From positions 17,353 through 81,352 of the forward strand of contig CAJXMG010000002.1 of assembly GCA_913056395.1 (NCBI GenBank): a stretch of DNA of 64,000 nucleotides. The letters run 5' to 3'. Numbering within the stretch: position 1 is the first letter of the stretch; each line of letters starts with the position of its first letter. The position numbers and the translations under genes are program-made. Positions 33,295 to 61,049 of this stretch are shown piece by piece. Below the pieces are notes generated by a model. The model was not told the origin of the DNA. It saw only the letters and a list, made by a program, of their open reading frames with translations, and did no database searches. Source of the DNA: an uncultured bacterium. Lineage in GTDB: Bacteria; Planctomycetota; UBA8108; UBA1146.

Positions 33295-34613
33295 CAGCGA
33301 CCCTCCCGATCCCAGACCACTTCACCGGAGATGATGGTCTTCATGACTTTCACTCCCGGGTCGAGTAACGATCCATTGAGAAGAATCAGGTGGGCTGCTT
33401 TGCCCTCCTCGATCGTCCCCATCTGATCACCCAGTCCCAAAAACTTTGCCGGGGCAGAAGTCAGTGAGGCGATCGCATCTTCTTCAGACATTCCATAACG
33501 AACCTGCTCCGCCATATATCCAGGCAGTTCTCTCATGCCACTGGCACTGTCAGAGCGCGGCAGGGAGATCACAGAACACCCTCCCCGTGAGAGTGCCGCT
33601 GGAACATGGTAGCGGTAGTAGGTATCGGGCAAAGCGCTCATCCCGGGAGGAATCATGACCGTCGCCTTGCGCTCGATCAGTTCATCGACCACTTCATGGA
33701 ACGCACCGTTGCGACTTCCCGGCAAAACGAAGATCGATGGTGGATCCCGATCCTCCAACTCCTTGACGCTCGACATCGCCGCATCCACGTGCAGCATCGA
33801 ACCGGGAGAAGAGATCGAGATGACCAGCGGCATGGCGGAAGATTTCTCTTCGAGAATGTCCACCAGCGGAACCAGAGCAGGATTCATCGGCGGAGCCTTG
33901 AACTCCTTGGGACCTTCGTCTTTTTTCGACTTGTCCCCCTTCTCGGCTGCAGCCTTGTCCTTGTCGCCTTTTTCCGCTTCCTTCTTCTTCGCCTCTTCTG
34001 CGGCCTTCTTGGCCTCTTCCTGCTTTTTGTCCCACTCTTCCCGAGCCTTCTTCGCCTTTTCGATCTCCTTGCGGGCACCATCGAAGGCCTGAGACACGGT
34101 TCGGTAGAGTGAAGTAGAGCCTGTCACCGTCAGCGGCAGATAGACCGACTCCTTGAGGATGCGGTTCTCTGCTTCAGGTGCGGTGTGCACGATGACCGCT
34201 TGTCCGTGAAATCCGGTTCCGGCAGGAACAAAGGCGGCAGCAACAAAGCCTGCCTCCAGAAAAGATTCCCAATCCATTTCCGAGTCGACCCAGCGATTGA
34301 GAACCGTCTGGTCACAACCCACACCGCTGACTCTTCCACCGATCAAACCCTGGCTCGTTCGGGAGAGAACCAGTCCCGCCATCAATGTCTGATTCCGGGC
34401 CTCGATAATTTTGGCGTTGTCAGGAATCTCGAGCTGGTTGCCAATCAGGGTGATCTTGCCATCTTCGATGACCACTTCACCGGGACTGATCGTCTCACCG
34501 GTACCGGTGATCACCGAGCCCGCACGAATGACCGTGACCCGGTCCTCCGCCAGCAGATCCGAGGAGACCCCCGCCACCAAGGCAAGGATCCAGGTCCATT
34601 GAATGATTCTCAT
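33294..34613 (-). CDS. Secreted amidohydrolase-fold protein, paralog 2 (HxH absent; Lys/Glu-rich linker)
   Basis: Signal peptide, IRAGSVITGTG...KIIEARNQTLMAGLV, C-terminal TIEEGKAAHLILLNG. TGATG overlap with paralog 1. Confidence 0.7.
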   Translation of the reverse strand: MRIIQWTWILALVAGVSSDLLAEDRVTVIRAGSVITGTGETISPGEVVIEDGKITLIGNQLEIPDNAKIIEARNQTLMAGLVLSRTSQGLIGGRVSGVGCDQTVLNRWVDSEMDWESFLEAGFVAAAFVPAGTGFHGQAVIVHTAPEAENRILKESVYLPLTVTGSTSLYRTVSQAFDGARKEIEKAKKAREEWDKKQEEAKKAAEEAKKKEAEKGDKDKAAAEKGDKSKKDEGPKEFKAPPMNPALVPLVDILEEKSSAMPLVISISSPGSMLHVDAAMSSVKELEDRDPPSIFVLPGSRNGAFHEVVDELIERKATVMIPPGMSALPDTYYRYHVPAALSRGGCSVISLPRSDSASGMRELPGYMAEQVRYGMSEEDAIASLTSAPAKFLGLGDQMGTIEEGKAAHLILLNGSLLDPGVKVMKTIISGEVVWDREGR

Positions 34614-35854
34614 TAGAAAACCCTCTTCTCACTGGCTTCGTAGGTGACCTCACCATCGATCACCGTCATCTCGCAGGATGAACGGGGGTCGATCGGGTCA
34701 CCGGTCCAAAGGCAAAAATCAGCGTCGAGCCCCACAGTGATGCTGCCGAGACGATGGTCCATCATCAGTGCTTCCGCGGGGATTTTGGTGATGCCCTTCA
34801 GCGCCTCGTAGGGTTTCCAACCGTAGTAGCAGGCCATGCTCGCCTGGTAGGCCAACTCTTCCTGCGGCACCACCGGAGAGTCGGTGTTGATACCCAGCTT
34901 GCGCACACCCCCCTGCCACCAGCGGGCAGCATTGCCCATCAGGCGTCTCTGGGTGCGGTCGTAGTGCAGCTGTCTCGGTCCATTGATGGTGTAAATCGAC
35001 TCGTCTGCATTGACGAGCGGAGCCACTTTCCAGGCGTCGAAGGTGGAGTGGTCCAGCACCGTACGGATGTTGAATTCTCCTGCAACCATTTTGACGGTGG
35101 TCATCAGCACCTGGTAAATCTGGGTGTGAACCGAAGCCACGGTTTCACGACGGAACAGCGGTCTAAACTCTTCCCAGTTCAGGTTGAAAGCGGGCTCGAC
35201 CTCGAGGCGACCCTCTTCCCACTCGGTTCTTGCCAAGTGGTAATCCCGTGCTTTGCGCAGGGTCTGACGGGTGTTGAAGTTCATGAAGGAACGTCCCACA
35301 CCGTAGAAGTAACGCTCCGGGTTTCCTGCCTGGGCGATCTTCAGGGATCCGGGAGCCTTGATGACGGATTCCGCAACGGTGCCCTCGGAGGTCTTCATGA
35401 TCGTACCGAAGCCGGACATGTTGTTTCCGCTACCCGGGATCGTCAATACCGTCGTCACACCACCGGCGCGAGCGCGAATCATCTCCGGGTTGTCGGGGAC
35501 GATGGATTCCAGCGTGCGCAATCCGGGGTTTGTCAGATAGACGTAGTCATGGAGGTCGGGAGAGCCACCTCCGGTGTGGTTGTGGCACTCGACAAAGCCG
35601 GGAACCAGCCACAGATCCTTGTGCTCAAAGACCTTTGCTCCGGCGGGGATCATGATCTCTTTCGATTTCCCCACCGCCGTGATCTTTCCATTTTCGACGA
35701 TCACGGTGGCATTGTTGATCACCCGCTCTTCGGTATCAAAGGTCACCACCTTGCCGACCTTGAATGCCAGGGTCTCGGCGGTTGCATCCGCCGAAAGACA
35801 AACGAGGAACAGGAAGGCCAGGCTGAAAATCCATTGATTGGCAGAGATCCTCAT
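34613..35854 (-). CDS. Secreted amidohydrolase, paralog 3 (the only one with an intact HxH motif)
   Basis: LWLVPGFVECHNHTGG is the canonical amidohydrolase HxH. Signal peptide MRISANQWIFSLAFLFLVCLSA. TGATG overlap with paralog 2. Confidence 0.75.
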   Translation of the reverse strand: MRISANQWIFSLAFLFLVCLSADATAETLAFKVGKVVTFDTEERVINNATVIVENGKITAVGKSKEIMIPAGAKVFEHKDLWLVPGFVECHNHTGGGSPDLHDYVYLTNPGLRTLESIVPDNPEMIRARAGGVTTVLTIPGSGNNMSGFGTIMKTSEGTVAESVIKAPGSLKIAQAGNPERYFYGVGRSFMNFNTRQTLRKARDYHLARTEWEEGRLEVEPAFNLNWEEFRPLFRRETVASVHTQIYQVLMTTVKMVAGEFNIRTVLDHSTFDAWKVAPLVNADESIYTINGPRQLHYDRTQRRLMGNAARWWQGGVRKLGINTDSPVVPQEELAYQASMACYYGWKPYEALKGITKIPAEALMMDHRLGSITVGLDADFCLWTGDPIDPRSSCEMTVIDGEVTYEASEKRVF

Positions 35855-38574
35855 CGTTGGACCTCCTCTCCATTGACAAATACTCGCTCGAGGCGACTGC
35901 CCCCTTCGAAAGGATGACCCTTCCAAATGAGCAGGTCTGCTTCCATGCCGACACCGATCTGACCGATTCGGTCATGGGCGCCGACCACCTTGGCCGCTCC
36001 CCGGGTCAGCGCATCCAGTGCCGCATCCGCAGCCATTCCATTGGCCACTTCTCCACGGACCCTGAAGGGCAATCTGCGGGCACCATCAGCAGCGGAACTT
36101 CTGAAGCCGACTGTCACTCCTGCACGACCCAACCAGGTGGAGGGCATGTAGGTCGTATCTGCAGCCTCAAAGCTCATCTGATCCGGCAGCAACACGGGGA
36201 TCTTCTTCTCCAGAAGCAGATCCTTGTGAAAACGCATGAACTGATCGAGTTGAACGGCAAAAGGGATCTCCTTGCCGGTGAAGTAATCGACCACAGACGG
36301 CAAGGTGTTGAAGCCCCTCACCGACACGAGGACCGGAATCTTCTTTTCCAGTACCGAACGGATCGGCTCCAGAGTCGCCCGGACTCTGGGCGGCCTCGGT
36401 CGACCATCATCGTCCTGCTTCTTCCGACGGGTGACCTTGAAGGTTTTCGCCTCCTTGCTGGTCCGGGTTCCGGAAAGATCCGCCGAGAAGGTCAGGATTG
36501 AAACCTTGCCCTCCATCGAATCTTCACCGGTGAGCTCCGCTTCGATCCGAGGAGTGTCCGGAAGATCTCCTTCGGGAACTTCGATGGTTCCCTGGAGAGT
36601 CGTTCCCTCAAGAGTACCGACGATTCGTACCGGCACCGGCGGTGCAGGCTCGACCAGTCGACCCTCCCACTCTGATCCAGTCAGGGTGATCGAAAGAGTG
36701 GCGCTTTCAGGCTCGGGAATCGGACCACCACTGATGGTCATCTCCCAGATTCCGGTCAGAGGGTCATCCAGTTTCTCTTCCGGAACCTCCTCGACCTCCT
36801 CCTGCTTACTCTTCTCAATCTTCTCCCCGGCCTCTTTTTTCTTCTTCCACTCGGCGAGATCTTTTTCGTATTTTTCCCATGTCTCGAGGTACTTCTGCCC
36901 TTGATCAAAGAGACGACGAATCGCCCCGAATCCACTATCGGAGATTTCCAGGAGAAGCATCGAGTAGTGATCGTCGATCCGCGCTTCACGGCTGTCGCCG
37001 GAAGTTTTGGCGAGAACGCCGATCCCCGCTCCACGCTGCAGTCGCTTCGGTGCCAGCAACTGACTGGTCACTCCAGCCAGAGCCACGCTGTGCTCTCGGT
37101 CACCGGTCACTCCCAACATTCGATGCAATCGATCACCGGTTCCCATCGAGGCGGAGTCCCCCTCCAGTCCCAAATGGCCGTAACAATCGATGAATCCGGG
37201 GGCAAGAAAACTGCCGGGTCCGGCGTCGATCACCTGACAATGCGGCGGGTGAGGAACCCGGTGCCCGACCGCGGTTATTACACCGTTCTCGATCAGGACC
37301 TGAGCATCACTCAACTGTTCCTCAGGAGAGATCCAGATCGTCTCTGCGCTGATCACTTTGGTGTGCTGCTCCTCCGGCTGCCACGCTCTCAGGCCCTCGA
37401 CAAAAACCTCGAGGGGACGGGCGTGAATCTTCCAGGGTGCATCGTTCCAGACGACGATATCGGCGTCCGCTCCGGGATGGAGGTGTCCCACCCGGTCTGC
37501 AACTCCGAGGATGCGGGCCGCATTATGGGTCACCCAGGGAATCACCGATTCCGGGGAATCCATGGCAGCCGCCGCTTCACTCATCGCCCAACCCAACTGG
37601 GAAAGGTCATCACCGGGAGGGGCCAATGCCCAAGCGGGACTCCCCTTCAGATGCGGAAAACCGTGGGAGCGAAGGACGCCTCCGTTGGGAATATCCCCCT
37701 GAGGTCCTCTCATACGCAGGACCACAGGAACTCCGGCATCCGCCAGATCGGCTTCCATGGCGCCGACCATCGCATCCGCCACGAGATATCCCTGACGACC
37801 TTCCGACTGCATCATTTGAATCATGCCCTGGAGATCGGGAGCAGCATCCACAGAGATGCGCATGGGAACTCCAGTGCCCCAGACCTTGGCCAGCTCACCG
37901 TGAGCGAGAGCATCTTTTCCCGCCATATCGATGGCCTCACGCAAAGCGAGAAGACGATCAACCCGGCTGGCGGGTCTCTGCGGGGCGGGTGGTTCAATCT
38001 GAACATCACTGGACGCGGGGAAGGGGATCTCCAGAAGAGGATCGGGATTGTCGACCCGGTCTCTGAGGGAGATTGCCAGATCTGAAGAATCGACCAGCAC
38101 CCTGCCGGAAGGAGCACCCTCCAGCTTCACCACCGCCCCCTGACCCGACATCAGTCGGTGTTCACCGGGATTGACATGAATCGTGGTCACGCCTGTTTCC
38201 AGGAGTGGGCGATGATCGCCGTAGGTGTTGTATCCATCTACCGCACGGAATGCGGCGGAAATCGATTCGTCACCACGGTGGGGACCGACAACCGCACTGG
38301 AGGCCGCAACGAGCCCGGGTGTCACATAGGCGTCAGGCCAATGCAACAGCGGAAGATCACCCACCAAACCGGCGGAGATCTGGGCCCATGGACCACAATC
38401 CACGACACGGCCATCTCGAACGACGATGGCTCCATCCACCAGCGATTGCTGCCCGGTATGCAAATGCCCGGCGCGAAGAACAAAATCTCCGCCTGCCCGG
38501 ACCTCTGCCGATGGGAGCAACACCAGTATCAGGAGCAGTAACCCGGTCAACCGGGTCCACTTGCCTGTCTGCAT
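35851..38574 (-). CDS. Secreted tandem double amidohydrolase-fold protein, paralog 4 (two degenerate domains plus ~200-aa charged linker)
   Basis: Two amidohydrolase-like units (YVTPGLVAASS... and FLAPGFIDCYGHLG...) separated by a K/E-rich low-complexity segment. Signal peptide MQTGKWTRLTGLLLLILVLL. Confidence 0.65.
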   Translation of the reverse strand: MQTGKWTRLTGLLLLILVLLPSAEVRAGGDFVLRAGHLHTGQQSLVDGAIVVRDGRVVDCGPWAQISAGLVGDLPLLHWPDAYVTPGLVAASSAVVGPHRGDESISAAFRAVDGYNTYGDHRPLLETGVTTIHVNPGEHRLMSGQGAVVKLEGAPSGRVLVDSSDLAISLRDRVDNPDPLLEIPFPASSDVQIEPPAPQRPASRVDRLLALREAIDMAGKDALAHGELAKVWGTGVPMRISVDAAPDLQGMIQMMQSEGRQGYLVADAMVGAMEADLADAGVPVVLRMRGPQGDIPNGGVLRSHGFPHLKGSPAWALAPPGDDLSQLGWAMSEAAAAMDSPESVIPWVTHNAARILGVADRVGHLHPGADADIVVWNDAPWKIHARPLEVFVEGLRAWQPEEQHTKVISAETIWISPEEQLSDAQVLIENGVITAVGHRVPHPPHCQVIDAGPGSFLAPGFIDCYGHLGLEGDSASMGTGDRLHRMLGVTGDREHSVALAGVTSQLLAPKRLQRGAGIGVLAKTSGDSREARIDDHYSMLLLEISDSGFGAIRRLFDQGQKYLETWEKYEKDLAEWKKKKEAGEKIEKSKQEEVEEVPEEKLDDPLTGIWEMTISGGPIPEPESATLSITLTGSEWEGRLVEPAPPVPVRIVGTLEGTTLQGTIEVPEGDLPDTPRIEAELTGEDSMEGKVSILTFSADLSGTRTSKEAKTFKVTRRKKQDDDGRPRPPRVRATLEPIRSVLEKKIPVLVSVRGFNTLPSVVDYFTGKEIPFAVQLDQFMRFHKDLLLEKKIPVLLPDQMSFEAADTTYMPSTWLGRAGVTVGFRSSAADGARRLPFRVRGEVANGMAADAALDALTRGAAKVVGAHDRIGQIGVGMEADLLIWKGHPFEGGSRLERVFVNGEEVQR

Positions 38575-38575
38575 C

Positions 38576-40117
38576 CTAGAGTCCTCCCTTGCTTGCCGAA
38601 TCAGTATCCGGCTCGGGGCTGGGGGCGGGTTTCTCTTCGCTCTTGCCATCCTTCTTCAGGGGCTCGGCATCTTCCTGGGTCTCTTCTGACCCTTTGGCTC
38701 CAGCTCCCTCTTCTGTCGAACCTTCTTCTCCCTGGGCTTCCTCGCCGGATGCTCCCTCGGAGGTTTCTTCCATCTCCTTGGATTCGTCAGAACTCTCCCC
38801 TTCTTCCACTTCGGGGAAGAGACGTTGCAGACGGGCATCCATCTCGCGGTCATAGGCGAGGATTCCTTCGATCCAGACCTTCTGAACCCATGAGGTCATC
38901 TCCAGAGGGTTGCCGGTCCACATGACGATGTTGGCCACCTTGCCCTTGTCGATGGATCCGTATTGATCTGCGACTCCACAGATTTCGGCAGCCCCCAGAG
39001 TGATCGTGCGTAATGCCTGTTCCTGCGACATGCCGTTTCGAACCAGACGTGCGGCCTGATAGGTCAGAAGATTTTCCGGTATCACATTGCTGCGACCCGC
39101 CTGCAGGGCGAAACGAATTCTGTTCTTGCGCATCACCTCGGGAATAAAGGTTTCCTCCACCTCTCCGGTGATGGCATCTCTCTCGCGGTGGATCAGATCG
39201 CTGTCGAGAACCACCGGCACCTTGGCCTCTGCAATCTCAGCTGCAGCAAGGTGAGCGTCCCCGGAGAGCACAAGAACCGCCCTTCCGGTCCAGCCCCTGT
39301 CAGCAATCATTGCGATGGCAGGAGCCACATCGGTCGCAGCACCACAATGGATCCAGGCACCCAGCTTTCCGCCATCGAGATAAGCCAAATTGCGGTGACG
39401 ATCGTCGAGGTCCTCTTCACGGATCATCGACTTCCCCTTCTCACGCGCTTCGGCGGGAGGCAAGGGATTCAAATCGTCACTGTTTTCCGCTTCCTGTTCG
39501 TAACGTGTCTCGGCGAGGTTTTCATGCCAGCGATCAAACTCGCTGAAGACACCCCGCAGTTCTGCACGCTGGCGCAAACGGTCGTAACCACCTTTGGGTG
39601 TCACCGACATCTTGAGAGCGATTCCCGGCAAACGGGTCATCTCATCGGGAGAGAGACCGATGGGATGAACGATCCGGCTCACTCCACCCACCACGCAGTT
39701 GTTGCCCTGCATGACGTGAACCGTAGAGATGCCGTTTCTCAGGGAGTTTTCAAAGAAGAAACGGGAAGGGTCGATGGCGTCGTAGACATCGACGAAGGGG
39801 GCCACCGAAAGATTCTCGTTGGGAATGTCCAATCCGGCGGGGTTGTGGGCATCCACCAACCCGGGTGCCAGGATCATTCCGCTGCAATCCACTTCCATGG
39901 CATCGTAGGGAACTTCCATGTCTGCTCCGCCTACCGCCTGAATGATGCCATTCTCGATCAGAATGGTTCCATCGACGACGGGTGCGCCGGAGACGGTCAG
40001 GATCTTGCCGCCTGTCAGGGCCACCTTGGGAGATGACTGGGCTTCTGCGACTCCCTGCTGAAAGAACAGCAGGAGGGCGATTCCCAGAGTCAGGAATTTG
40101 TGAGTCAGGGTCGACAT
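38576..40117 (-). CDS. Secreted amidohydrolase-fold protein, paralog 5 (HNP in place of HxH; acidic C-terminal tail)
   Basis: Signal peptide MSTLTHKFLTLGIALLLFF, MILAPGLVDAHNPAG, C-terminal GSIDKGKVANIVMWTG. Confidence 0.7.
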   Translation of the reverse strand: MSTLTHKFLTLGIALLLFFQQGVAEAQSSPKVALTGGKILTVSGAPVVDGTILIENGIIQAVGGADMEVPYDAMEVDCSGMILAPGLVDAHNPAGLDIPNENLSVAPFVDVYDAIDPSRFFFENSLRNGISTVHVMQGNNCVVGGVSRIVHPIGLSPDEMTRLPGIALKMSVTPKGGYDRLRQRAELRGVFSEFDRWHENLAETRYEQEAENSDDLNPLPPAEAREKGKSMIREEDLDDRHRNLAYLDGGKLGAWIHCGAATDVAPAIAMIADRGWTGRAVLVLSGDAHLAAAEIAEAKVPVVLDSDLIHRERDAITGEVEETFIPEVMRKNRIRFALQAGRSNVIPENLLTYQAARLVRNGMSQEQALRTITLGAAEICGVADQYGSIDKGKVANIVMWTGNPLEMTSWVQKVWIEGILAYDREMDARLQRLFPEVEEGESSDESKEMEETSEGASGEEAQGEEGSTEEGAGAKGSEETQEDAEPLKKDGKSEEKPAPSPEPDTDSASKGGL

Positions 40118-40168
40118 CGATTACCTCGGTTTCAATACTTCCTCCGCAGTGCGGGTGGAAGGTTTAGC

Positions 40169-41698
40169 TCAATTTCTCTCGTATGAAAGTACACCGTCCA
40201 GCATGACCTTTTCGATGCGGGTCAAGGCTGAGAATGGGGAACCGTTCCAACAAACCAGGTCAGCTCTGCGTCCCGGTTCCAGGGTTCCCACTTCTTTTTC
40301 GATTCCCAGCAACTGGGCCGGGTACTGAGTCACCATTCGCAACGCCTCCGCAGGATCGACTCCGTATCGAATCGCCAGCATCGCCTGACGGGCAAGGCCC
40401 TCTTCACCGCGCAGGTCCTGCGCACTGAGAGCCATCGGGATGCCGGCGTCAGAAAGATCGCGGACCGTGTGAAGCCTTCGGTTACGAAGTTCACGGGACC
40501 CGGCAATGATTCCGCTGGGTTGATCAAAGATGGGACCGAAGACCACGGGAGTTCCTGTTTGCTTGAGCAGGTCGACCCGCTTCCACGCTTCCACCGGATC
40601 TTCCAGTGTGAAGGAAATGCCAAACTCATTGGCAAAGCGGAAGGCGGTTTCGATGTCACTGCCGGTTCTGGCCTGAATTCTCATCGGCACATCACCGGCG
40701 AGGACTCCCTGCAAAACCCGGGAGGCTTCTGCAGAGGTTTTGTCGGCACCGGTCGGCTCAAGGCCCCGGGCGCGAAGAAGGGCATCGTAGAAGGCTCTGC
40801 GGAAAACCCAGCCCACGCCCATTCGGGAATCGGGGCGACGGGTGTAGATGGAAACAAAGCCGCGGAAAGGGCTGCGATTCCGGGTGCCGTAGCGGTAGGC
40901 GTCACTGCCGACCACCGTTTTGACAGAACCGGTTCCCATGAAGCGATCGGTGATGGGACCGCCGGTACGCATCGTGGCTCCGCGGGACCCGATCACGGCA
41001 GATCCATCGGGACTGATGTAAACCGTGGTCACCCCCTCCTGGAGCAAACGATCAAAATCTTTCGATCCGTGATCGATACCGTCCATGATCTCGAATTGGG
41101 GAACCACCTCGCTCGACTGATCGGTGATGAGTCCACTCTCGCTGGGAACTCCCGCAGCCATCGCTTCGCGCTTCAGCTCAGCGAGTTCCTCTTCTTCCTC
41201 TTCCTCATCATGGGCGTGGGCATGGGGGTCATGCTCCGGGTATCCACAGAAGAGGCAACTCTCATCATGGCGGTGAAGAGTTTGTGCAGGACAAACGGTT
41301 CCACAGGGGCAGACATCACCACCGTGATACTGGTCTTCCATCCCCAATGCTCGAAGGATCGTCAATCGCGGATCCTCGGTGGGATAGAGCATGGCATCCA
41401 TCACGTCGATCTTGGCGTTGGCATCGATCAGGCCAGGGGTCACTTCTGCGACCTCCATGACCTCCAGTCCTTCCGGAACAGCTCCGCCGGAAGTGACACT
41501 TTCGATTCGCCCGTCACGGACGACGATGACCGCATTGTCGACGGTCTGACCATTGCCGACGTGAGCCTTGCCCGCCTTGACGACATAGGAGTTGACCGTT
41601 TTCACGGCCTCCTCTTCTGCCAACAGTGGCGAGAAACAGAAACCAATCACCAGACTGAAGACCCACAGCATCAGGGATTTGTTGAGTGTGTTGTTCAT
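40169..41698 (-). CDS. Secreted amidohydrolase-fold protein, paralog 6 (HxH absent; Cys/His-rich insert plus poly-Glu)
   Basis: Signal peptide, TPGLIDANAKIDVMDA (no His), an insert CPCGTVCPAQTLHRHDESCLFCGYPEHDPHAHAHDEEEEEEE, C-terminal GTLEPGRRADLVCWNG. Confidence 0.7.
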   Translation of the reverse strand: MNNTLNKSLMLWVFSLVIGFCFSPLLAEEEAVKTVNSYVVKAGKAHVGNGQTVDNAVIVVRDGRIESVTSGGAVPEGLEVMEVAEVTPGLIDANAKIDVMDAMLYPTEDPRLTILRALGMEDQYHGGDVCPCGTVCPAQTLHRHDESCLFCGYPEHDPHAHAHDEEEEEEELAELKREAMAAGVPSESGLITDQSSEVVPQFEIMDGIDHGSKDFDRLLQEGVTTVYISPDGSAVIGSRGATMRTGGPITDRFMGTGSVKTVVGSDAYRYGTRNRSPFRGFVSIYTRRPDSRMGVGWVFRRAFYDALLRARGLEPTGADKTSAEASRVLQGVLAGDVPMRIQARTGSDIETAFRFANEFGISFTLEDPVEAWKRVDLLKQTGTPVVFGPIFDQPSGIIAGSRELRNRRLHTVRDLSDAGIPMALSAQDLRGEEGLARQAMLAIRYGVDPAEALRMVTQYPAQLLGIEKEVGTLEPGRRADLVCWNGSPFSALTRIEKVMLDGVLSYERN

Positions 41699-48020: not shown

Positions 48021-48266
48021 CCCGTTAAGCGCGCCCGGGAAGCGTAAAGATCGGTACATTTCTCTTTAAAACCGTCAAATAACGCGGATAAAGCCAACGG
48101 TTCGCTTCAGATACGATCCAAACCCGCTTCCGAAGGCCCCATCGATGGGCTAATCTGACTCTTTCATTCAGGATCCGTATTTGTCCCAAAGGCGGCTCCG
48201 GTGATTTTCGTCCTCCCAAAGAGGACTGTTCAATCCTCACGGATCAAACCCCAGCAAGGAGAACCC

Positions 48267-49223
48267 ATGAAGTCATCTCTGACAGGGATCCTGTTTCTGT
48301 GTCTTTTGATGTTCGTTGCGACCCCTTTCCTTTCTGCGACCGAAAAGGCCGCCGAAGGTCTTTCCTGGGAAACGGATATTTCCGTTGCCATGGAGAAGGC
48401 GAAAAAGGAGGGCAAGGACATCCTGATCAACTTCACCGGCAGTGACTGGTGCGGCTGGTGCAAAAAACTTGACAGCGAGGTTTTCTCCAAGCCGGACTTC
48501 GATGCCACGGCAGGCAAGCAGTTCATCTACCTTTACCTGGATTTCCCCCAGGCTGAAGAGCTGAAGGCCAAAGTGGTTGACCCCAAACTGAACGACAAGC
48601 ACCGCGATGAGATGGGGGTCAATGGTTACCCCACCATCATGCTCACCGATGCCATGATGCGCCCCTACGGTCGTACCGGATATCTTCCGGGTGGACCCGA
48701 AGCTTACCTCAAGAATCTTGAGGAGTTGCGTACCGAAGGTGACAAGCTGAAGAAGATGCTTGCCGCTGAAGATGCGGAAGCCGGCAAGATGCTTGCGGAC
48801 GTTTTTGGCGTGATGACCAAAAACGAGCTTCTCGGATACCCCGGATACTCCAAGTATCTGGAGATGGCTGAAAAGTCTGACAACGCCGACCTGAAAAAAT
48901 TGGTCGCCGCCCACAAGGCCGGCATGCGTCTCAAGGAGTTGATGAACACCCGCGAGCCGGACTTCCCGACACTGGTCGCTTTCCTGACCGAGAACCCGGA
49001 CGTCACCGGACCGGATGCCCTCAATGCTCTCTGGTTTGCCCACCAGTGGTTGGCCGAGCAGGATCGCAGGGACGAGGCCAAAGCTTTCCTGAATCGCATG
49101 CTCAAAGATCCTCTGGTCGCCGACAATCCGCAGGGCAAGCAGATGATCGAACAGGCCATCCACAATCTGGACCATCCCGATGGAAACCATGACCACGATG
49201 GTGACGGAGTGCCCGACCACTAG
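48267..49223 (+). CDS. Secreted thioredoxin-family protein (CGWC active site) with helical C-terminal extension
   Basis: Signal peptide, INFTGSDWCGWCKKLD. AAGGAG ribosome-binding site before the ATG at 48267. Confidence 0.7.
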   Translation: MKSSLTGILFLCLLMFVATPFLSATEKAAEGLSWETDISVAMEKAKKEGKDILINFTGSDWCGWCKKLDSEVFSKPDFDATAGKQFIYLYLDFPQAEELKAKVVDPKLNDKHRDEMGVNGYPTIMLTDAMMRPYGRTGYLPGGPEAYLKNLEELRTEGDKLKKMLAAEDAEAGKMLADVFGVMTKNELLGYPGYSKYLEMAEKSDNADLKKLVAAHKAGMRLKELMNTREPDFPTLVAFLTENPDVTGPDALNALWFAHQWLAEQDRRDEAKAFLNRMLKDPLVADNPQGKQMIEQAIHNLDHPDGNHDHDGDGVPDH

Positions 49224-49246
49224 GCCGGTCTCCCGAACAAGTTGAA

Positions 49247-49287
49247 ACGGAGGGTGGATCCCCGGTGATCCACCCTCCGTTTTTTTG
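49247..49287 (+). terminator. Rho-independent terminator
   Basis: 14-bp perfect stem acggagggtggatc / gatccaccctccgt, loop cccggt, then TTTTTTT. Confidence 0.8.
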
Positions 49288-49347
49288 TGCCTGATCCACA
49301 AATTGGATCACTTCTGCCCTTAAACCGACTGATCAGCATTCTCGAAA

Positions 49348-53635: not shown

Positions 53636-54085
53636 TCACTCGCTGCCAACGGTATTTTCCCCGAGGAGCATCCGCAATTCGGAAACGTGTTCAGATTCCA
53701 GGGCCACCTGTTGACGGGCGAACTCCTCGAGAACCACGTCCCCACTACCCTCTACCACCTCGAGAAACTCCTTGTACGCATCCAGAGCCGCCTGCTCAAA
53801 GAGAAGGGCCGTTTGAAGTGCTTCGATGCCCGTACACTTTTCACCGGTCAACTCGAGATTGATTTTTGGCTGGGGGGTTCCCCCCACCTGAAGAATCTTC
53901 TCGGAGACCTGTTGGGCATGCTCGACCGTTTCTTCATGATTTTCCTGAAGCACCTTTTGGATGACCAGTCGATCGATCCCCTGGACCAGTGTGCCCAGAT
54001 GCAGATATCGGATTGAAGCTTCCAGCTCTTCCGCCAACAACTCATTCAGGCGGCTCAGAGCAACCTCACGGGAATATTCACTCAT
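53636..54085 (-). CDS. bfr: Bacterioferritin / ferritin-like diiron protein
   Basis: ExxH pairs (HEETVEH, LESEH) in a ~150-aa four-helix protein. Start set at MSEYSRE. Confidence 0.6.
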   Translation of the reverse strand: MSEYSREVALSRLNELLAEELEASIRYLHLGTLVQGIDRLVIQKVLQENHEETVEHAQQVSEKILQVGGTPQPKINLELTGEKCTGIEALQTALLFEQAALDAYKEFLEVVEGSGDVVLEEFARQQVALESEHVSELRMLLGENTVGSE

Positions 54086-54635
54086 CGTCTTTATCCTTGC
54101 TTTGCTCTTCAGAGCTGCTCTGCAATCGCTCGGAGATGGTCTCGATCTCTTTTCCCGGGAAAGCCTCAACCCGGCCTTCGCGGATACTGTCTTCGAGAGC
54201 GTTCACTTGCTGTTCACGATCCGAAGAAGAATCCGAAGCATCCTCTCTTCGATCGATGTAGATCGCCAGCGCCTCAGCGGTCAGATCGCTGACCAGGTGC
54301 TCAATCTTGCAGGCGTCCATTTCCGCCAGATCCGCAGGCAGACCGAGGGATTTTTCCAAAAACGCCTGAAACAGGACCCGCTTGGTGTGAATCCCCCGCG
54401 CAATCCGCTGGCCTTCATCAGAAAGCCCCAAATGCTTGTGCTGGTCTTCCACCACCAGCCCTCTTTGCCGGAGCCCCTTGAGGGAGACGGAGACACTTCC
54501 GCGGGTGATGCCCAGTTTTCGGGCGACATCCGACACTCGGGCATACCCCTGATCTTCCAGGAGTTGCTGAATCGCCGTCAAATGGTGGGCAGCAGAATGA
54601 CTTACGGGGTTCTGGTCGAACTCTCGCCAATCCAT
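54078..54635 (-). CDS. DtxR/MntR-family metal-dependent transcriptional regulator
   Basis: HTH VSDVARKLGITRGSVSVSLKGLRQRGLV. Start at MDWREF with a GAGGAGGAG ribosome-binding site. Overlaps the bfr start by 8 nt. Confidence 0.75.
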   Translation of the reverse strand: MDWREFDQNPVSHSAAHHLTAIQQLLEDQGYARVSDVARKLGITRGSVSVSLKGLRQRGLVVEDQHKHLGLSDEGQRIARGIHTKRVLFQAFLEKSLGLPADLAEMDACKIEHLVSDLTAEALAIYIDRREDASDSSSDREQQVNALEDSIREGRVEAFPGKEIETISERLQSSSEEQSKDKDDE

Positions 54636-54668: not shown

Positions 54669-54921
54669 GGGTTGATGAGCACTCAAACAGCATGTAAAAA
54701 TAGGCCTGCTGAGCACCGTGTTCCTGGATCTGCAGATTAATGCCCGATTCACGTAAGGACAAGTGTTCGTAATAGTTGCGAGGCTCACTTGAGCCTTCAT
54801 CTCAGGACTTTCGAACTGGAGATCCATGCAAACCGGTAACCCCAGCCCAGAAAAGAGTGCGCGACCCTCGCTGGAACAGGCGGCTCTCAGCACGTCTGCC
54901 CAGGTCAGATCACTCTTTGAC

Positions 54922-55128
54922 ATGAAACTGGGAGATCGGGGTCGCCTGGTGGAAGATTCAATCCCCCAGAATCAGCGCCCCCTGCTGGAAGCGATGGGCA
55001 TGTGTGGGGACTGCGAGCTTCGGGTTTGCCACAATTCCGGTTCCTGCATTCTGGAGATCGACGGACAAAGGGTAGGACTCAGTGAAGAGATCGCTTCTAC
55101 GCTCCGGGTTCTCCCTCTGGACAGTTGA
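54922..55128 (+). CDS. feoA: FeoA-family protein
   Basis: MKLGDRGRLVE...LLEAMGMCGDCELRV...LEIDGQRVGLSEEIASTLRV matches the FeoA SH3-like fold. The track ORF begins at 54826. Confidence 0.65.
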   Translation: MKLGDRGRLVEDSIPQNQRPLLEAMGMCGDCELRVCHNSGSCILEIDGQRVGLSEEIASTLRVLPLDS

Positions 55129-55239: not shown

Positions 55240-55929
55240 GTGAAGACTGACATGACCCGATTTTACAAGCAGTCCGGATTTACCCTTGCTCGCTCCAATA
55301 CCTCAACCCGTTGGCTTCTGACTCTCTTTTTCCTGACCGTGATCTCCGGTTGCGTCGTTGCTGCGATTCAATACTCCAGCAGTGCAGGAGGATTCACCCT
55401 CGAGAATGCCCGCGAATGGGTTCTGGGCAATGAGGACGACCTCGATGCTGAAGAGTTGATGTCCGAAAAAACTCCCAGAGAACTGCTCTCCTTCATCCAT
55501 GACCACATCTTCTCGCTGGGAATGCTGCTCTTCGTCGTCCTGCACCTGTTTGAACTGACGCCCTGGTCCACCGGGGTCAAGGTCACCCTTTCCTTCACAG
55601 GCTTTGGAAGTCTTGCGGGGTTGCTCTTTTCACCCCTCGCCATCGCTTCCGGAAGTTCACTGGCACTCTTCACCCAGATCATCGGCGGAAGCCTTCTGTT
55701 GCTCAGTCTGGTAATGGGATCTTTGGCATGCCTCGACGAGTTGTGGTGGGCACCTCGCCGAAGAAATCGGGCGGGCAAGGCCGATCCCCCGGCTTCAGAC
55801 CCCCTCTTCCCTGCCAAAGCCTCGAAAAAAACAGACTCGGGCAAGTCGGAATCGGGAGGCTGTCCCATGGGCTTCGGGTCCGGTCAAAAAAATCCCGGGA
55901 AACCTTCGTCAGAAGATTCCCCGGGATAA
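55240..55929 (+). CDS. Integral membrane protein of unknown function, downstream of feoA
   Basis: Four or five hydrophobic helices and a Gly/Ser/Lys-rich C-terminal tail. Confidence 0.4.
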   Translation: MKTDMTRFYKQSGFTLARSNTSTRWLLTLFFLTVISGCVVAAIQYSSSAGGFTLENAREWVLGNEDDLDAEELMSEKTPRELLSFIHDHIFSLGMLLFVVLHLFELTPWSTGVKVTLSFTGFGSLAGLLFSPLAIASGSSLALFTQIIGGSLLLLSLVMGSLACLDELWWAPRRRNRAGKADPPASDPLFPAKASKKTDSGKSESGGCPMGFGSGQKNPGKPSSEDSPG

Positions 55930-55955: not shown

Positions 55956-57128
55956 TTACTTGCTCTTTTCAGCGGCCTGTTCCGCTTTCGCTTCCTGAAC
56001 CAGCAACTCGATGGCGTCGTCCATTTCTTTGCCACGGATATCCTTGTAACGAATGATTCCCTTGGCGTCGATCAAGTAGATCGTCGGCCAACCGGTCACA
56101 TTCCAGCGTGTTGATATCGGTCCACCAGGACTTCCATCGTAAAAGCTGAGCCAGTTGATCTTGTTTTTCTCGACCACTTCACGGGCTTTTTCGATGGAGG
56201 AATCCGAATTGATTCCGACGATGGCAAAAGGATCTGCAGAGTATTTCTCCACGAGCGACCGCTCGTGAGGGTACATGGCCCTGCAGGGGCCTCACCAATC
56301 ACCCCAGAAATCAAGCAGGATCACCTTGCCTCTGAAAGAGGACAGCTGCATCAACTTGCCGGAGATCTCCTTGCCAATGATTTCAGGTGCGACACAACCG
56401 ACCTGAAGATTCTTCATTTCGAAGAGGTCGCCCTTGACCTTGTCGGCATAAACGGATCTCCCGTAAGAGACATCCCCATACTCATCCTGAACCCTTTTGA
56501 GCAGAGCCAGGCCCTCACTGCGGGTCTCTTCCTTCTTGCCCTTGATCTTGGCAAGAGAGTAACAGCCTGCGGCCTGAACTTCCCTGTGAGGCGAGTCACT
56601 GACCACCACGCTGAGAAAATCACACATGGCAGGAGCCATGGCATCGGAGCAGTAGTGTGCGTAGCGCAAGACGTCGACCAGCTTCTCATTCTTCAGGTAG
56701 TGAGTCTTGAGTGCTGACAATGCCTTTTCTGCCATCCAACCGGCAGATTCACTTCTGCCAGCCAGAGCCAACAATTGGTCACAAGCACCGAGGGCCGCAT
56801 CTGTCCCCGCATACTTGTCGATGGCTTTGAGCATCTCGGGGCCGACGACCATCACAGGATCGAGAGCCGGATCGAGTTCGATCTTCTCCATCTCTTTATC
56901 GCTGAGACCTTTTTCCCGAGCCTCTGTCAGCGGCTTGTAATAAGCCTCCTGAGCCTTGCTCATTTTTTTATTGATCTCTTCAAATGCCTTTTCAGCGGCC
57001 GCTTCCATCTTTTCATCTGCGATCCCCGAAACTGAAGCGGGAGAAAAAGAGAAAGCCACTGCCGGACCCGACAGCATAAAAGCGATCACGAGACAGACGG
57101 TCCCGTATCGACGAAGACGAGGAATCAT
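55956..57128 (-). CDS. TlpA/ResA-like thiol:disulfide oxidoreductase, candidate selenoprotein (in-frame TGA at 56292..56294 at the first Cys position of the CxxC motif)
   Basis: Two track ORFs (56292..57179 and 55956..56276) lie in the same frame and are separated by a single TGA. The read-through reads ...VILLDFWGDW-U-GPCRAMYPHE..., i.e. the thioredoxin-fold WCGPC motif with U for C. The second ORF continues with a TlpA-like fold (SFYDGSPGG...GWPTIYLIDAKG). Signal peptide MIPRLRRYGTVCLVIAFMLSG. Confidence 0.6.
56250..56267 (-). promoter_or_regulatory. SECIS-like hairpin downstream of the in-frame UGA
   Basis: mRNA CACGAGC-GGUC-GCUCGUG: a 7-bp stem with the same GGUC apical loop as the E. 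coli fdhF SECIS, beginning ~24 nt after the UGA with the loop at ~31 nt. Confidence 0.45.
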
Positions 57129-57347
57129 GGGATACCCTTCCAATTTTGACCTTCCGGTCGATCCACCTCCGTGGATCAATCTGCAACCAAAGATACCACA
57201 GTGGAAGAAATTGGCAGGGTCCTATTTGGAGCAGGGTCCACAATCTCCTCCGGACGTGCGGCTCCGCTTCCGGACCAGCAACAGGAGAGAGACAACTGCG
57301 ACGAGAGTCACAATCCAGAATTGGGAGTCTGATTCAAACATGGATTC

Positions 57348-59291
57348 TCACTCCCACCCAAGAAGCAAAATCAACATGCGCATGGCGGCAGCCATACCCC
57401 ACGCCAGGAGGCTCATCCATGTCAACTGAAGGATCGCCCACTTCCATGCCCCAGACTCCTTGCGAGTAACCGCAAGTGTGGGAAGGCACTGCATCGCCAG
57501 CACGAAAAAGACCAACAATCCAGCAGCCGAAGAGGGTGTCAGAAGAGGAGAACCATCATCCCGTCTGGAGTTTCTGATCTTCTCCATCAATGGTTCCGCT
57601 TCTGCCTCTTCGCCGGTTCCCAAAAGAACACTGGTTGAGGACACAAAAACTTCTCTGGCGGCAAAACTGGCCATGATCGAAATCGACAATTGCCAATCGG
57701 CTCCTATGGGTGCAAACACCGGCTCCACACTCTTGCCGATTCGACCCAGGTAAGACGCGGCGGTACTCTCTCGGGAAGCGAGGGAATCCGCCTCCTCGAC
57801 GAGAGATTCCGCTTCCTCCACAGATTCCACTGCTGCAGCTTTGGCTCGCAAATCGGCGACAGCAGAACTCTCTGTGCTCTTGGGATAGGTTCCCAACCAC
57901 CAGAGAACGATGCACATCAGCAAAATGACGGTTCCCGCATTTTTGAGGAAGAGCCAACCACGCTGGAAGGCGATTTTCAGGGAGTCCATCAATGACGGTC
58001 GCTGAAAGGGAGGCATCTCGAGAACCAGGTCAGGACTGGGCCCGGGCAACAGGAAACGCCGAACTATCCAGGCGCTGAAGACCGCTGCCAATGCTCCCAG
58101 CAGGTAACACCCGGCAAAAGCCAATCCGGCAATGAAGGGTTTTTCAGGAAAGAGCAACCCTACCAGCAGCTGGTATACCGGCAATCTGGCTGCACAAGAG
58201 AGGAATGGAGCAACCAGAATCGCTGCCAGACGATCCTTGCGATCCGGAATCAAACGCGTGCACAGAATTCCTGGAATGGCACAGGCGTGACTCGACAGCA
58301 AGGGAACGAAGGAATGCCCTGGCAGGCCGAATGGTCGCAGCCAACGATCCGCAACCAAAGCTGCACGGGCCAAATACCCAGTTTCCTCCAAAACACTGAT
58401 GAGGAAAAACAACAGCAAAATCTGAGGCAGGAAAATCAGCGTACCTGAGACGCCACCGATGATTCCCTCGACGACGAGACTTCGGACCTCGCCTTCCGGC
58501 ATGCTTGCGGAGACCCAATCCGCGATCAAAGCAAAGGTATTGTCGAGCCATTCCATGGGAATCTGGGCCAACCAGAAAACACATCCAAAAAGCAGGCTCA
58601 TGATGAGGAAAAAGGTCGTCAGCCCCCAGAAGGGATGAAGCAGGAACCGATCGAGGCGATCCTCTTTCTCTCTTCGCTTTTTGGCTTCCTCCGGTCGAAC
58701 GGGGCGTGTCACCGCTGCGACCGTATCGTCGACCCACTTCGAGTCGAGAACCGTATCCTGAGGACTCACGGGCCGCTCTGCCGCTGCCAGAATAAATTCC
58801 TTGAGGGCTACATTTCGGTGTGCATGACGATGAGCCAATTCCATGACCGGGACCTGAAGAATCTCTTCCAATCGCTGGAAGTCGATCTCCACACCCCGGA
58901 GCCGTGCTTCATCGGTTCGGGTCACAATGACCGCATTTGCAGTCCCTCTTTGCAGGCACTCCGCCAACAGGTTCATGTTTCTGCGCAGGCTGACCGCATC
59001 GATCACACTGACGATCAAGTCGGGATTTGGGGAAGCCTCCAAATGTTGTTGGCAATGACGGGATTCGGGAAGGTCCAGTTGCAACCCGTAACACCCGGGG
59101 AGATCGGTGACCTCCACATCGATGTCTCCCCAACGATCCTCACCCACCAGCGATTCCGCAGTGATTCCGGGAAAGTTGGAGACTCTGGCATTCCCCGTCA
59201 CAAGGGCATTGAAGAGGGTGGATTTTCCAACGTTGGGATTTCCGGTGACAGAAATGCGGAGTGTTTTCCCGGATTGTTCTTGGTTCATCAC
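57348..59291 (-). CDS. feoB: Ferrous iron transporter FeoB
   Basis: G-domain GNPNVGKSTLFNAL and a permease domain with many transmembrane helices. Confidence 0.85.
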   Translation of the reverse strand: MMNQEQSGKTLRISVTGNPNVGKSTLFNALVTGNARVSNFPGITAESLVGEDRWGDIDVEVTDLPGCYGLQLDLPESRHCQQHLEASPNPDLIVSVIDAVSLRRNMNLLAECLQRGTANAVIVTRTDEARLRGVEIDFQRLEEILQVPVMELAHRHAHRNVALKEFILAAAERPVSPQDTVLDSKWVDDTVAAVTRPVRPEEAKKRREKEDRLDRFLLHPFWGLTTFFLIMSLLFGCVFWLAQIPMEWLDNTFALIADWVSASMPEGEVRSLVVEGIIGGVSGTLIFLPQILLLFFLISVLEETGYLARAALVADRWLRPFGLPGHSFVPLLSSHACAIPGILCTRLIPDRKDRLAAILVAPFLSCAARLPVYQLLVGLLFPEKPFIAGLAFAGCYLLGALAAVFSAWIVRRFLLPGPSPDLVLEMPPFQRPSLMDSLKIAFQRGWLFLKNAGTVILLMCIVLWWLGTYPKSTESSAVADLRAKAAAVESVEEAESLVEEADSLASRESTAASYLGRIGKSVEPVFAPIGADWQLSISIMASFAAREVFVSSTSVLLGTGEEAEAEPLMEKIRNSRRDDGSPLLTPSSAAGLLVFFVLAMQCLPTLAVTRKESGAWKWAILQLTWMSLLAWGMAAAMRMLILLLGWE

Positions 59292-59334: not shown

Positions 59335-60951
59335 TCAGCGCTGATGACGCCCGACAAAACGTGGCTGGCTCTCACCCTCAACCAGAATCACTGCAGAAGC
59401 ATTCGGGCAGTTATCCAGAATCGTTCGTGCTCTCTCTTGTCCGAGAAGAGCGACAGTGGTGCTCAAGGCATCCGCCTCGGTGGCACTGTTCGAAAGAACC
59501 GAAGTGGTCAGGATACGTCCCGGTGAAGGATTGTCGAGAAGTTGCACTAGGTGATCCCCGCGTTCATAGCACGCAGTGGTCGCCAGTGAGGAGCGAATCA
59601 GTGACAGCTCATGGAGGACAGACTTGCCATCCCTGGGGTCATGGATTCCCACAGCCCAGGATTTTTCACCGGGGGGCGGATCGAGTGCCAAAAGTTGGCC
59701 TCCGAAATCGAGAAGAGCACGGGAGCAGCCGTGGGACTCAAGTACGACCGCCGCACGATCGAGGGCATAACCTTTTCCGATTCCACCCAAGTCGAGAATC
59801 AGGCCGGGACTCAACAGGGTGATCGTCCCCTTTTCCCGATCCACCTTGACGCTGCGGAAGCCATCCTTCTTCAGGGTCAGATCAAAGGCTCCCCCACTCT
59901 CTCTGGACATGGCGAGTGCTTTTTCGACGACCTCGACAGTTTCCCGGGCAACCTTGACCGGCTCTCCCACAGGTGCCGCTTCTACCCTCAAGACGTCGCT
60001 CCCCGCTTTCCAGCGGCTGTGCAGCGATTCCAGGCGCTCTACTTCAGAATAGGCGGCTTCCACAGCCTTGAGTGCCTGCTCTCCGTAGACCTCCATCTTG
60101 AGGACGGTCCCCATGGCGGGACGAGCCCTCTCGACGGAAGCCGGTTTGTCTTCCTTACCTGATCGGAGTACAGAAACGTCCTCAGGGCCCGCAGCGGTCA
60201 CCGGTTCCGCGGAGGCGGGTTCACCGTATGCCAGAGAGGAGCCGGAAAGAGCCTGCCAAACCAGATCCAGATTCTGTTTCTGCGAAACTTCAACGGTCGC
60301 GATCGATCGTCGCACTGCACGAACAGCTGCACGGGCAGAAAGAGTGGCACCGGAGAGGTTTCTGATTCCGCGGTGGAGCTTCAGCGACTTGCCCAGTTTT
60401 TTATTCCTGAACTGCCGGGTGAATCGGGGAGATTCAATCTCCTGACCGATGTGCTCCCGGTAAACGAGAACCTGAAGGTCAAGGACGCGCCGATCATTGT
60501 CGAGGGCGACAAAGAAAGTGATGGGACGATACTTCCCGACCTCATCGAGGATCACCACAGATCCCAGTCTGTTACCTTGGGGAGAGGTGACCCGAAACAG
60601 AGTGGTCTGTTGGTCATTGGTTCTCACCCTGCTCATCTCAACGATCTTCTTCTTCACTTCCCCTTCGACCGGAACATGGCATCGCTCTACGTGCACATCT
60701 GCACTCCACAGATCAGCAATCAGATCCCTGCTGAAGAAGCCGGAAGTCTTTTCGGGAAGCGTTGTCTCAGTCGACACACCTGTCTCGGAAGAGACGGATT
60801 CAGATGCACCTGGCTCAAGAGCCAGTGCCTGGGAAGAAACGGTCATGACCCACAGCAAACCCGCAACCAACCCGCAGTAACGGAAGCAGACCCGCGACTC
60901 GCGGATCCCTTCGGAATGCGTGCTGAAATCACTGCAGGAAACAGGGCTCAT
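59335..60951 (-). CDS. Fused FMN-binding domain (flavinylation target) and ApbE FAD:protein FMN-transferase
   Basis: FMN_bind motif NLSGATLSARA (SGATxS), ApbE motifs GGAFDLT and DLGGIGKGYALD. Start moved to the signal-peptide Met MSPVSCSDF... Confidence 0.7.
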   Translation of the reverse strand: MSPVSCSDFSTHSEGIRESRVCFRYCGLVAGLLWVMTVSSQALALEPGASESVSSETGVSTETTLPEKTSGFFSRDLIADLWSADVHVERCHVPVEGEVKKKIVEMSRVRTNDQQTTLFRVTSPQGNRLGSVVILDEVGKYRPITFFVALDNDRRVLDLQVLVYREHIGQEIESPRFTRQFRNKKLGKSLKLHRGIRNLSGATLSARAAVRAVRRSIATVEVSQKQNLDLVWQALSGSSLAYGEPASAEPVTAAGPEDVSVLRSGKEDKPASVERARPAMGTVLKMEVYGEQALKAVEAAYSEVERLESLHSRWKAGSDVLRVEAAPVGEPVKVARETVEVVEKALAMSRESGGAFDLTLKKDGFRSVKVDREKGTITLLSPGLILDLGGIGKGYALDRAAVVLESHGCSRALLDFGGQLLALDPPPGEKSWAVGIHDPRDGKSVLHELSLIRSSLATTACYERGDHLVQLLDNPSPGRILTTSVLSNSATEADALSTTVALLGQERARTILDNCPNASAVILVEGESQPRFVGRHQR

Positions 60952-61033
60952 CGACTTCTTCCTCTGATTGAAAGGGACGGTTTCGGGACCCAATGACGGA
61001 CCCGCCGAAAATAGAACTGATTTGGTACCGTTT

Positions 61034-61049
61034 GGCAACCCAAACAAAT
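61034..61049. promoter_or_regulatory. GTTTGGCAACCCAAAC, third copy of the GTTTGG..CCAAAC palindrome, upstream of the FMN_bind/ApbE-feoB genes
   Basis: Read directly. 6-bp arms with a 4-nt spacer (or 7-2-7 with one mismatch). Confidence 0.4.

Follow-up and report, generated by a model that had tools for sequence, protein, structure and literature searches.

A very probable selenocysteine-containing TlpA-like oxidoreductase gene with a strongly conserved SECIS-like hairpin in an uncultured planctomycete

The thiol-disulfide isomerase-like selenoproteins (cd02966), with a UxxC motif in which U is selenocysteine (Sec), and the peroxiredoxin-like (Prx-like) selenoproteins have long been established as predicted families (PMC1088965, PMC1794560, PMC13188914), the former, which is TlpA-like, having been first predicted in the Sargasso Sea metagenome (PMC1088965, PMC13188914). 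Among Planctomycetes, complete selA/B/C/D sets are documented (PMC4807772), and Sec candidates annotated as split genes, of the 'thiol-disulfide isomerase-like thioredoxin' and 'peroxiredoxin' kinds, have been listed for Planctomycete P1 (Kim et al. 2016, PMC4807772, Table S9). Here, a gene of this kind is described from a 64,000-nucleotide stretch of an uncultured member of the Planctomycetota (assembly GCA_913056395.1, contig CAJXMG010000002.1, positions 17,353 to 81,352 of the forward strand), hereafter called the window, where a preliminary description made from the DNA letters had pointed to a UGA codon in the active site of a thioredoxin-like protein. The locus is very probably one intact gene for a genuine Sec-containing TlpA-like oxidoreductase, as supported by the conservation of its UGA, of the reading frame that follows and of a hairpin placed at a constant distance downstream.

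Regarding the described families, both the thiol-disulfide isomerase-like and the Prx-like thiol:disulfide oxidoreductase (PF00578) selenoproteins share with this locus the thioredoxin/AhpC-TSA fold, Sec as the first residue of UxxC, the existence of CxxC homologues, a marine distribution and likewise a Sec insertion sequence (SECIS) with a G opening a small apical loop. The differences lie in the predicted signal peptide, in an all-alpha domain of ~200 residues and in the link of its clade to feoB, and the likeness to published members (e.g. MGB1650493.1) is one of description, not of sequence comparison. Judging from its sequence, the gene is a member of the known UxxC 'thiol-disulfide isomerase-like / TlpA-like' selenoprotein class; the statement of the preliminary description that Sec-for-Cys thiol-disulfide oxidoreductases are an established bacterial class agrees with the literature (PMC1088965, PMC1794560, PMC13188914). 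The candidates of Planctomycete P1, also compared by description, have in common with it the phylum, the kind of gene and the annotation as two open reading frames (ORFs), and their closest Cys homologue is found in Singulisphaera, as here P0013 of Singulisphaera rosea is a Cys homologue. However, no SECIS was found by bSECISearch for the two thioredoxin-like candidates of P1 (PMC4807772), whereas the one described here is clear and strongly conserved. Compared to the extracytoplasmic thiol:disulfide reductases TlpA (Bradyrhizobium), ResA (Bacillus) and DsbE/CcmG, the protein shows the same kind of N-terminal export or anchor sequence and the W-C/U-x-P-C motif, but it differs in having Sec in place of Cys, an extra helical domain and a gene context without cytochrome-maturation or copper-chaperone genes.

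On the minus strand, the reading frame runs from the ATG at 57128 to the TAA at 55958-55956, and its sole internal stop is the TGA at 56294-56292, located within the peptide VILLDFWGDW*GPCRAMYPHERSLV (DFWGDW-U-GPC), the local context being GKVILLDFWGDW-TGA-GPCRAMYPHERSLV. After this codon, 111 sense codons follow, and not 106 as first counted, the latter being the length of the ATG-started ORF (56276-55956) reported by gene callers. In every public assembly examined, the gene callers split the gene into products of 277/278 and 106 amino acids, the same split noticed in the preliminary description, and the fragment is named in NCBI records as 'hypothetical protein' or 'peroxiredoxin family protein'. 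A reassignment of UGA in the genetic code was considered and rejected, since TGA serves as the normal stop in 27 of the 33 Pfam-supported genes of the window. In addition, a strong intrinsic terminator is placed 3' of the TAA rather than of the UGA (Table 1), so that transcription is predicted to stop beyond the second 'ORF'. When the window was scanned for other TGA-joined frames with a redox motif, no second candidate was obtained.

The position of the UGA within the protein is defined by an alignment of 27 full-length homologues (A1), where its column corresponds to the first Cys of WCxPC, with the second Cys (C282) being invariant and W278 nearly so. Thus, both the translation and the homologues place the single in-frame TGA where the first Cys of WCGPC is expected, as had been proposed. 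The closest database proteins are all 271-293 amino acids long and end exactly at ...DFWG[DH]W, the identity over the N-terminal part of these 13 truncated proteins being 51-95% for nine, 42% for one and 26-32% for three, while more distant full-length homologues have WCxPC. In the DNA of all 13 loci found through the N-terminal fragment, a TGA comes next, followed by 103-118 in-frame codons, and the independent assemblies of this species (L001-L004) carry the identical TGA.

For a wider view, one genome per species was scanned with the pattern W-[TGA/TGC/TGT]-G-P-C-R-A-M-Y-P, in which the hairpin was not specified, resulting in at least 119 loci; among the matches listed, to which the family-wide counts below also refer, 116 have TGA, three TGC and none TGT. 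All of the 110 complete TGA loci listed remain open for at least 101 codons (median 110) past the TGA. In orthologues and paralogues, the codon is therefore conserved rather than decayed, from 95% down to ~26% identity over the N-terminal part, one of the outcomes that the preliminary description had left to be checked. Moreover, the ratio of non-synonymous to synonymous substitution rates (dN/dS) of the segment after the UGA, calculated against five orthologues, is 0.02-0.19, indicating that the segment is translated and under purifying selection.

Most of the listed carriers come from the Planctomycetota (Pirellulaceae, Gemmataceae, Mariniblastus and others) or are metagenome-assembled genomes (MAGs) of Verrucomicrobiales/Akkermansiaceae, and carriers of this class belong mostly to marine and freshwater Planctomycetota and Verrucomicrobiota. 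A few MAGs bear labels from outside both phyla, namely L017 and L081 (QNYK01, 'Bacillota bacterium'), L023 ('Proteobacteria') and L078 ('Gemmatimonadota'); since these sequences are similar to those of the feoB-linked clade of planctomycetes, mis-binning, mislabelling or transfer are possible.

Downstream of the UGA, the mRNA can form a short hairpin spanning +27 to +44, counting the U of UGA as 0, in which the GGUC loop starts at +34 and is separated from the UGA by 31 nt. The stem has 7 bp, or 8 bp with a possible U-G pair, closing a loop of 4 nt, with -11.8 kcal/mol when folded alone. The bacterial SECIS (bSECIS) consensus of Zhang and Gladyshev, restated in PMC13188914, describes a stem of 4-16 bp closed by a loop of 3-9 nt, a G as the first or second loop nucleotide, with G/U generally next, a spacing of 16-37 nt and a minimum free energy of -7.5 kcal/mol or lower. 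The loop and stem lengths and the energy found here are within these ranges; the 31-nt spacing is the same in every listed TGA locus bearing the hairpin, and G-G-U-C is invariant in 113 distinct listed sequences, except for L056, which has GAGC. As a result, the 7-bp hairpin with a GGUC loop about 31 nt after the UGA, which had been noticed from the letters alone, was recovered and agrees with the consensus in all four respects.

Taken alone, the local fold stands out only moderately (z = -2.4, with 3 of 200 shuffles equally stable), and it is the conservation across genomes, not this fold, that places the hairpin beyond chance. The 17-mer CACGAGCGGTCGCTCGT is identical and at the same distance in 107 of the 116 listed TGA loci, and eight of the other nine differ from it at one or two positions: five of these pair by G-U wobble, one of the five changing the amino acid E to G; in L041, the outer C-G pair is replaced by U-A, a compensatory change; and two break one pair. 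The ninth locus, L056, lacks the hairpin entirely, as do the three listed TGC loci. In the listed sequences, the third-codon entropy is at most 0.15 bit at +29, +32, +35, +38 and +41, compared to 1.2-1.9 bit in the flanking codons, and the codon set CAC-GAG-CGG-TCG-CTC (HERSL), expected in 0.9% from the codon usage of these genes, is seen in 107 of 110. The hairpin is thus constrained as RNA, at the nucleotide level, and RNAalifold applied to 113 sequences gives a hairpin of 6-7 bp as the sole conserved structure.

Some side observations also concern the RNA around the UGA. Paralogues with U-P-P-C, U-G-A-C and U-G-R-S motifs (L083, L124, L126; L012 at ~5350-5400; L084 at ~4970-5020) have the identical hairpin at the identical distance, and in L012 two Sec paralogues adjoin. 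The Arg codon following GPC (within window 56277-56291, minus strand, +3 to +17) has G as its third base in 106 of 113 listed sequences, while CGG and AGG together make up only ~26% of the Arg codons in these genes, and many single-sequence folds show a small GGNCC/GGGCC hairpin directly 3' of the UGA. The region just after the UGA may be a second constrained RNA feature.

Several results weigh against the interpretation of the UGA as a Sec codon and of the hairpin as its SECIS. Firstly, selA, selB, selD and tRNA-Sec were not found in the window or in 136 related sequences (1.07 Mb), the rest of the genome lying outside this search, which combined ARAGORN for tRNA-Sec over the window and all loci, a Pfam scan of the large window ORFs and tblastn with E. 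coli SelA, SelB and SelD over the 1.07 Mb. Secondly, the loop GGUC, as the preliminary description correctly stated, also caps the fdhF SECIS of E. coli, and both elements have a G+C-rich stem and lie within the coding sequence 3' of the UGA; however, the loop starts at +34 here, 13 nt further from the UGA than in fdhF (+21), and the present stem has neither the bulged U nor any conserved helix below it that extends to the UGA. A long lower stem, which the window's own sequence forms when folded singly, is not conserved among the 113 sequences analysed by RNAalifold. Rfam at gathering score assigned no SECIS family anywhere in the window, and a search of 56100-56400 relaxed to E up to 10 returned two unrelated chance matches only. 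Because the stem is nearly invariant, the support from covariation is also thin, consisting of one compensatory pair and five wobble changes. Finally, L134:3001-4113, L135:1124-2245 and L136:406-1593 carry TGC (Cys), CGA (Arg) or TGG (Trp) at this position, each one base away from TGA, and still keep the exact CACGAGCGGTCGCTCGT. These hairpins are most simply explained as fossil SECIS elements after a recent one-base loss of Sec, although they could have a role independent of the UGA and the codons are possibly assembly errors.

With these points considered, the alternatives can be compared. Bacterial Sec insertion competes with release factor 2, and some truncated product is expected from such a gene. 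Termination could then be the main outcome at the UGA, with the 278-residue helical protein as the functional product and the thioredoxin part made occasionally, for instance under selenium supply, or separately, by initiation at the internal ATG of 56276, where a 106-codon ORF indeed begins. Nevertheless, a product starting at this Met285 would contain no part of the UxxC motif and would miss the opening strands of the fold, and no ribosome-binding sequence is evident by eye before the ATG; the truncated product, in turn, would stop in the middle of the thioredoxin fold, since in its model strands are formed at 251-261 just before the chain ends. Furthermore, in the loci found through the N-terminal half, the GPCRA codons between the TGA and the ATG are conserved as amino acids while their synonymous sites vary, indicating that these five codons are translated. 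Predominant termination is very improbable.

A second possibility is that the UGA is recoded to an amino acid other than Sec, either by near-cognate reading as Trp or Cys or by Cys carried on tRNA(Sec), the hairpin acting as a read-through stimulator or a pause site. It would accommodate the Sec machinery missing from the sampled sequence (the window and the 1.07 Mb of related loci) and the occurrence of Cys or Trp codons at this site. However, in its G-G-U-C loop and in its geometry the hairpin matches the bacterial SECIS elements that depend on SelB, the position is that of the nucleophilic Cys of CxxC, a classic site of Sec/Cys exchange (PMC1794560), and Planctomycetes having full sel sets and similar split genes are documented (PMC4807772). 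In addition, efficient non-specific read-through would be costly where TGA is the main stop codon, and recoding of this kind is considered very improbable. The remaining alternative, a pseudogene or sequencing error in which the TGA would be a nonsense mutation or a miscalled TGC/TGT of a once Cys-containing TlpA-like gene whose downstream part is no longer made, could appeal to the gene callers ending the protein at the TGA and to the rare relatives with TGC, CGA or TGG, but is effectively refuted by the conservation data, namely the same TGA in the independent assemblies and in 116 listed species genomes, the frame kept intact downstream in 110 of 110 complete listed loci and the low dN/dS beyond it, as well as by a terminator that follows the second part of the gene and not the TGA.

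Selenocysteine insertion being the preferred interpretation, the gene would encode a single 390-residue exported or membrane-anchored TlpA/ResA-like oxidoreductase, in which the all-alpha domain of ~200 residues precedes the thioredoxin fold and the attacking residue of the active site would be the Sec of U-G-P-C. During translation, the GGUC loop of the hairpin would recruit SelB-GTP-Sec-tRNA(Sec), and the UGA at 56294-56292 would then be decoded with incorporation of selenium instead of being read as a stop; the ribosome would proceed through 111 codons to the TAA, on a transcript ending at the terminator at 55927-55892. The mature enzyme could act as a selenol/thiol reductant of disulfides in a putative substrate outside the cytoplasm. 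By analogy with the related enzymes, its chemistry is likely to be disulfide reduction in this compartment, Sec serving as the nucleophile and Cys282 as the resolving residue.

Concerning the protein itself, when Cys replaces the stop, Pfam matches AhpC-TSA (60.2 bits), Thioredoxin_8 (59.3 bits) and Redoxin (56.8 bits) cover residues 243-366 and span the UGA, each above its gathering score. The TlpA/ResA-like fold that had been claimed to continue past the UGA is supported in this way at the superfamily level. The best NCBIfam matches are ResA (E = 1.7e-18), TlpA (E = 6e-16) and DsbE (E = 7e-13), but no NCBIfam model reaches its own cut-off with this protein, as TlpA NF047696 scores 58.9 against a required 230, ResA NF002854 67.1 against 170 and DsbE TIGR00385 48.5 against 123. 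With scores so far under the cut-offs, the protein is a superfamily relative of these enzymes and not their orthologue.

The N-terminus MIPRLRRYGTVCLVIAFMLSGPAVAF resembles a signal peptide or membrane anchor, and the AlphaFold model, which covers the N-terminal 278 residues only, shows a helix at 3-18 with low predicted local distance difference test (pLDDT) values, followed by a disordered linker; export, or anchoring in the membrane, is predicted from the amino acid sequence. The all-alpha domain that comes next, modelled with confidence, is common to Sec and Cys homologues in the alignment. No Pfam family matched residues 39-240, and a Foldseek search of this domain against the PDB returned nothing above weak helical-repeat matches (YfgM, 14-3-3; best E = 0.024, TM 0.35).

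Table 1. Positions of the candidate selenoprotein gene, its elements and the surrounding iron-related genes in the window
Feature	Position	Strand	Basis
Selenoprotein coding sequence (predicted), 390 codons, Sec at 279, stop TAA	55956..57128	-	Translation; same start Met in orthologues; 87-97% of protein aligned with Cys homologues
UGA read as Sec (predicted), first residue of U-G-P-C redox motif	56292..56294	-	Aligned to first Cys of WCxPC
Putative SECIS hairpin CACGAGC-GGUC-GCUCGUG, loop 56257-56260	56250..56267	-	Folding and conservation
Predicted N-terminal signal peptide or membrane anchor MIPRLRRYGTVCLVIAFMLSGPAVAFSFSPASV	57030..57128	-	Basic n-region then hydrophobic stretch, read from sequence
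All-alpha helical-repeat domain, residues 39-240	56409..57014	-	AlphaFold model with ten helices (mean pLDDT 88)
Thioredoxin-fold (TlpA/ResA/Redoxin-like) domain, residues 243-366	56031..56402	-	Pfam
Intrinsic terminator, 16-bp stem and run of seven T, 29 nt past TAA	55892..55927	-	Sequence
39-amino-acid ORF MFESDSQFWIVTLVAVVSLLLLVRKRSRTSGGDCGPCSK, one transmembrane helix, basic patch, C-terminal CGPC	57222..57341	-	Previously uncalled, 6 nt past feoB stop
feoB (FeoB_N, Gate, FeoB_C), directly upstream, same strand	57348..59291	-	Pfam
Fused FMN_bind (RnfG-like) and ApbE flavin transferase, 570 amino acids, upstream of feoB	59335..61047	-	Domain search
Aq_1264_TM membrane protein, convergent	55240-55929	+	Precomputed PF27139 annotation
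feoA (FeoA 25.2 bits), convergent to selenoprotein gene	54826-55128	+	
DtxR-family iron-dependent repressor	54078-54635	-	
Ferritin-like protein	53636-54085	-	

The gene lies among iron-related genes (Table 1), and an ABC-2 exporter also lies beyond the convergent feoA/Aq_1264_TM pair. In the window and in L001-L010, feoB is found ~200-260 nt upstream on the same strand, and this link, along with the downstream genes, is kept in all close orthologues to ~44% identity, with L010 (GCA_036338595.1) lacking the ApbE and Aq_1264_TM genes. In the wider family, on the other hand, feoB is nearby in just 8 of the 119 listed loci, and distant paralogues have unrelated gene contexts. The iron-uptake operon in which the preliminary description had embedded the gene is accordingly a feature of the close clade (L001-L010) and does not extend to the Sec-TlpA family as a whole. 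For this clade, co-expression with the Feo genes is proposed, and the arrangement suggests co-transcription with feoB. A search of the intergenic regions for a DtxR/IdeR box (19-mer palindrome, up to 3 mismatches) and for inverted repeats gave nothing convincing that would tie the gene to an iron regulon.

The protein encoded upstream of feoB is also present in L001, L003, L006-L009 (L009 being GCA_009937185.1) and probably L005, and is absent in L010. Its FMN_bind-ApbE fusion suggests that a redox module using flavin is attached to the uptake of ferrous iron. Besides, the short ORF between feoB and the selenoprotein gene has a weak match to PF12669 (FeoB_associated; E = 0.018, below threshold), and its frame and CxxC are conserved in L005-L010, being annotated as a gene only in L010. 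From these features, it is a probable FeoB-associated Cys-rich membrane protein.

A wider reading, speculative and unlikely, is that the FeoB-linked clade represents a redox accessory dedicated to the uptake of ferrous iron in oxic waters and that the invariant hairpin represents a lineage-specific class of SECIS. According to it, an exported Sec-based reductase, targeted by the novel helical domain, may maintain in the reduced state the FeoB cysteines, those of a partner or the extracytoplasmic FMN_bind-ApbE flavin/Fe(III)-reducing module encoded upstream. Likewise, with its fixed place at +34 in both Planctomycetota and Verrucomicrobiota, the 17-nt hairpin may reflect a SelB geometry unlike that of E. 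coli.

Taken within the known class, the findings are modestly novel, the new elements being the link to feoB, the additional helical domain and the remarkable invariance of SECIS sequence and spacing across two phyla, and the general picture of bacterial selenoproteins is unchanged. Owing to the annotation as split or stub genes (~277 and 106 amino acids), the selenoproteomes of marine Planctomycetota and Verrucomicrobiota appear to be under-counted. The family also provides a very clean natural data set of SECIS elements, from more than 110 species, with one hairpin, one distance and a few one-base escape variants (Cys, Arg, Trp), being useful for SECIS models and for the engineering of Sec insertion, while the conserved feoB link points to a relation of selenium to iron uptake that is open to testing.

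Other observations were made on stop codons and on the remaining genes of the window. The selenoprotein gene of the window stops with TAA, though TGA closes 27 of the 33 window genes, and the own terminator is TGA in 41 of 110 listed Sec-TlpA genes (L014-L132) compared to 468 of 732 other long ORFs (Fisher p = 2e-7, phylogeny not corrected for). A second exported thioredoxin-like protein of 340 amino acids, with WCGWC and related to Thioredoxin_7 / DsbH, is encoded ~7 kb away at 48201-49223 on the plus strand, where a longer, spurious ORF of the opposite strand (48273-49301) overlaps it. At 31888-41698 on the minus strand, four amidohydrolase-family paralogues of 468, 439, 932 and 509 amino acids are found among ORFs without a Pfam match, and the one of 932 amino acids, with two Amidohydro matches, resembles a tandem duplication.

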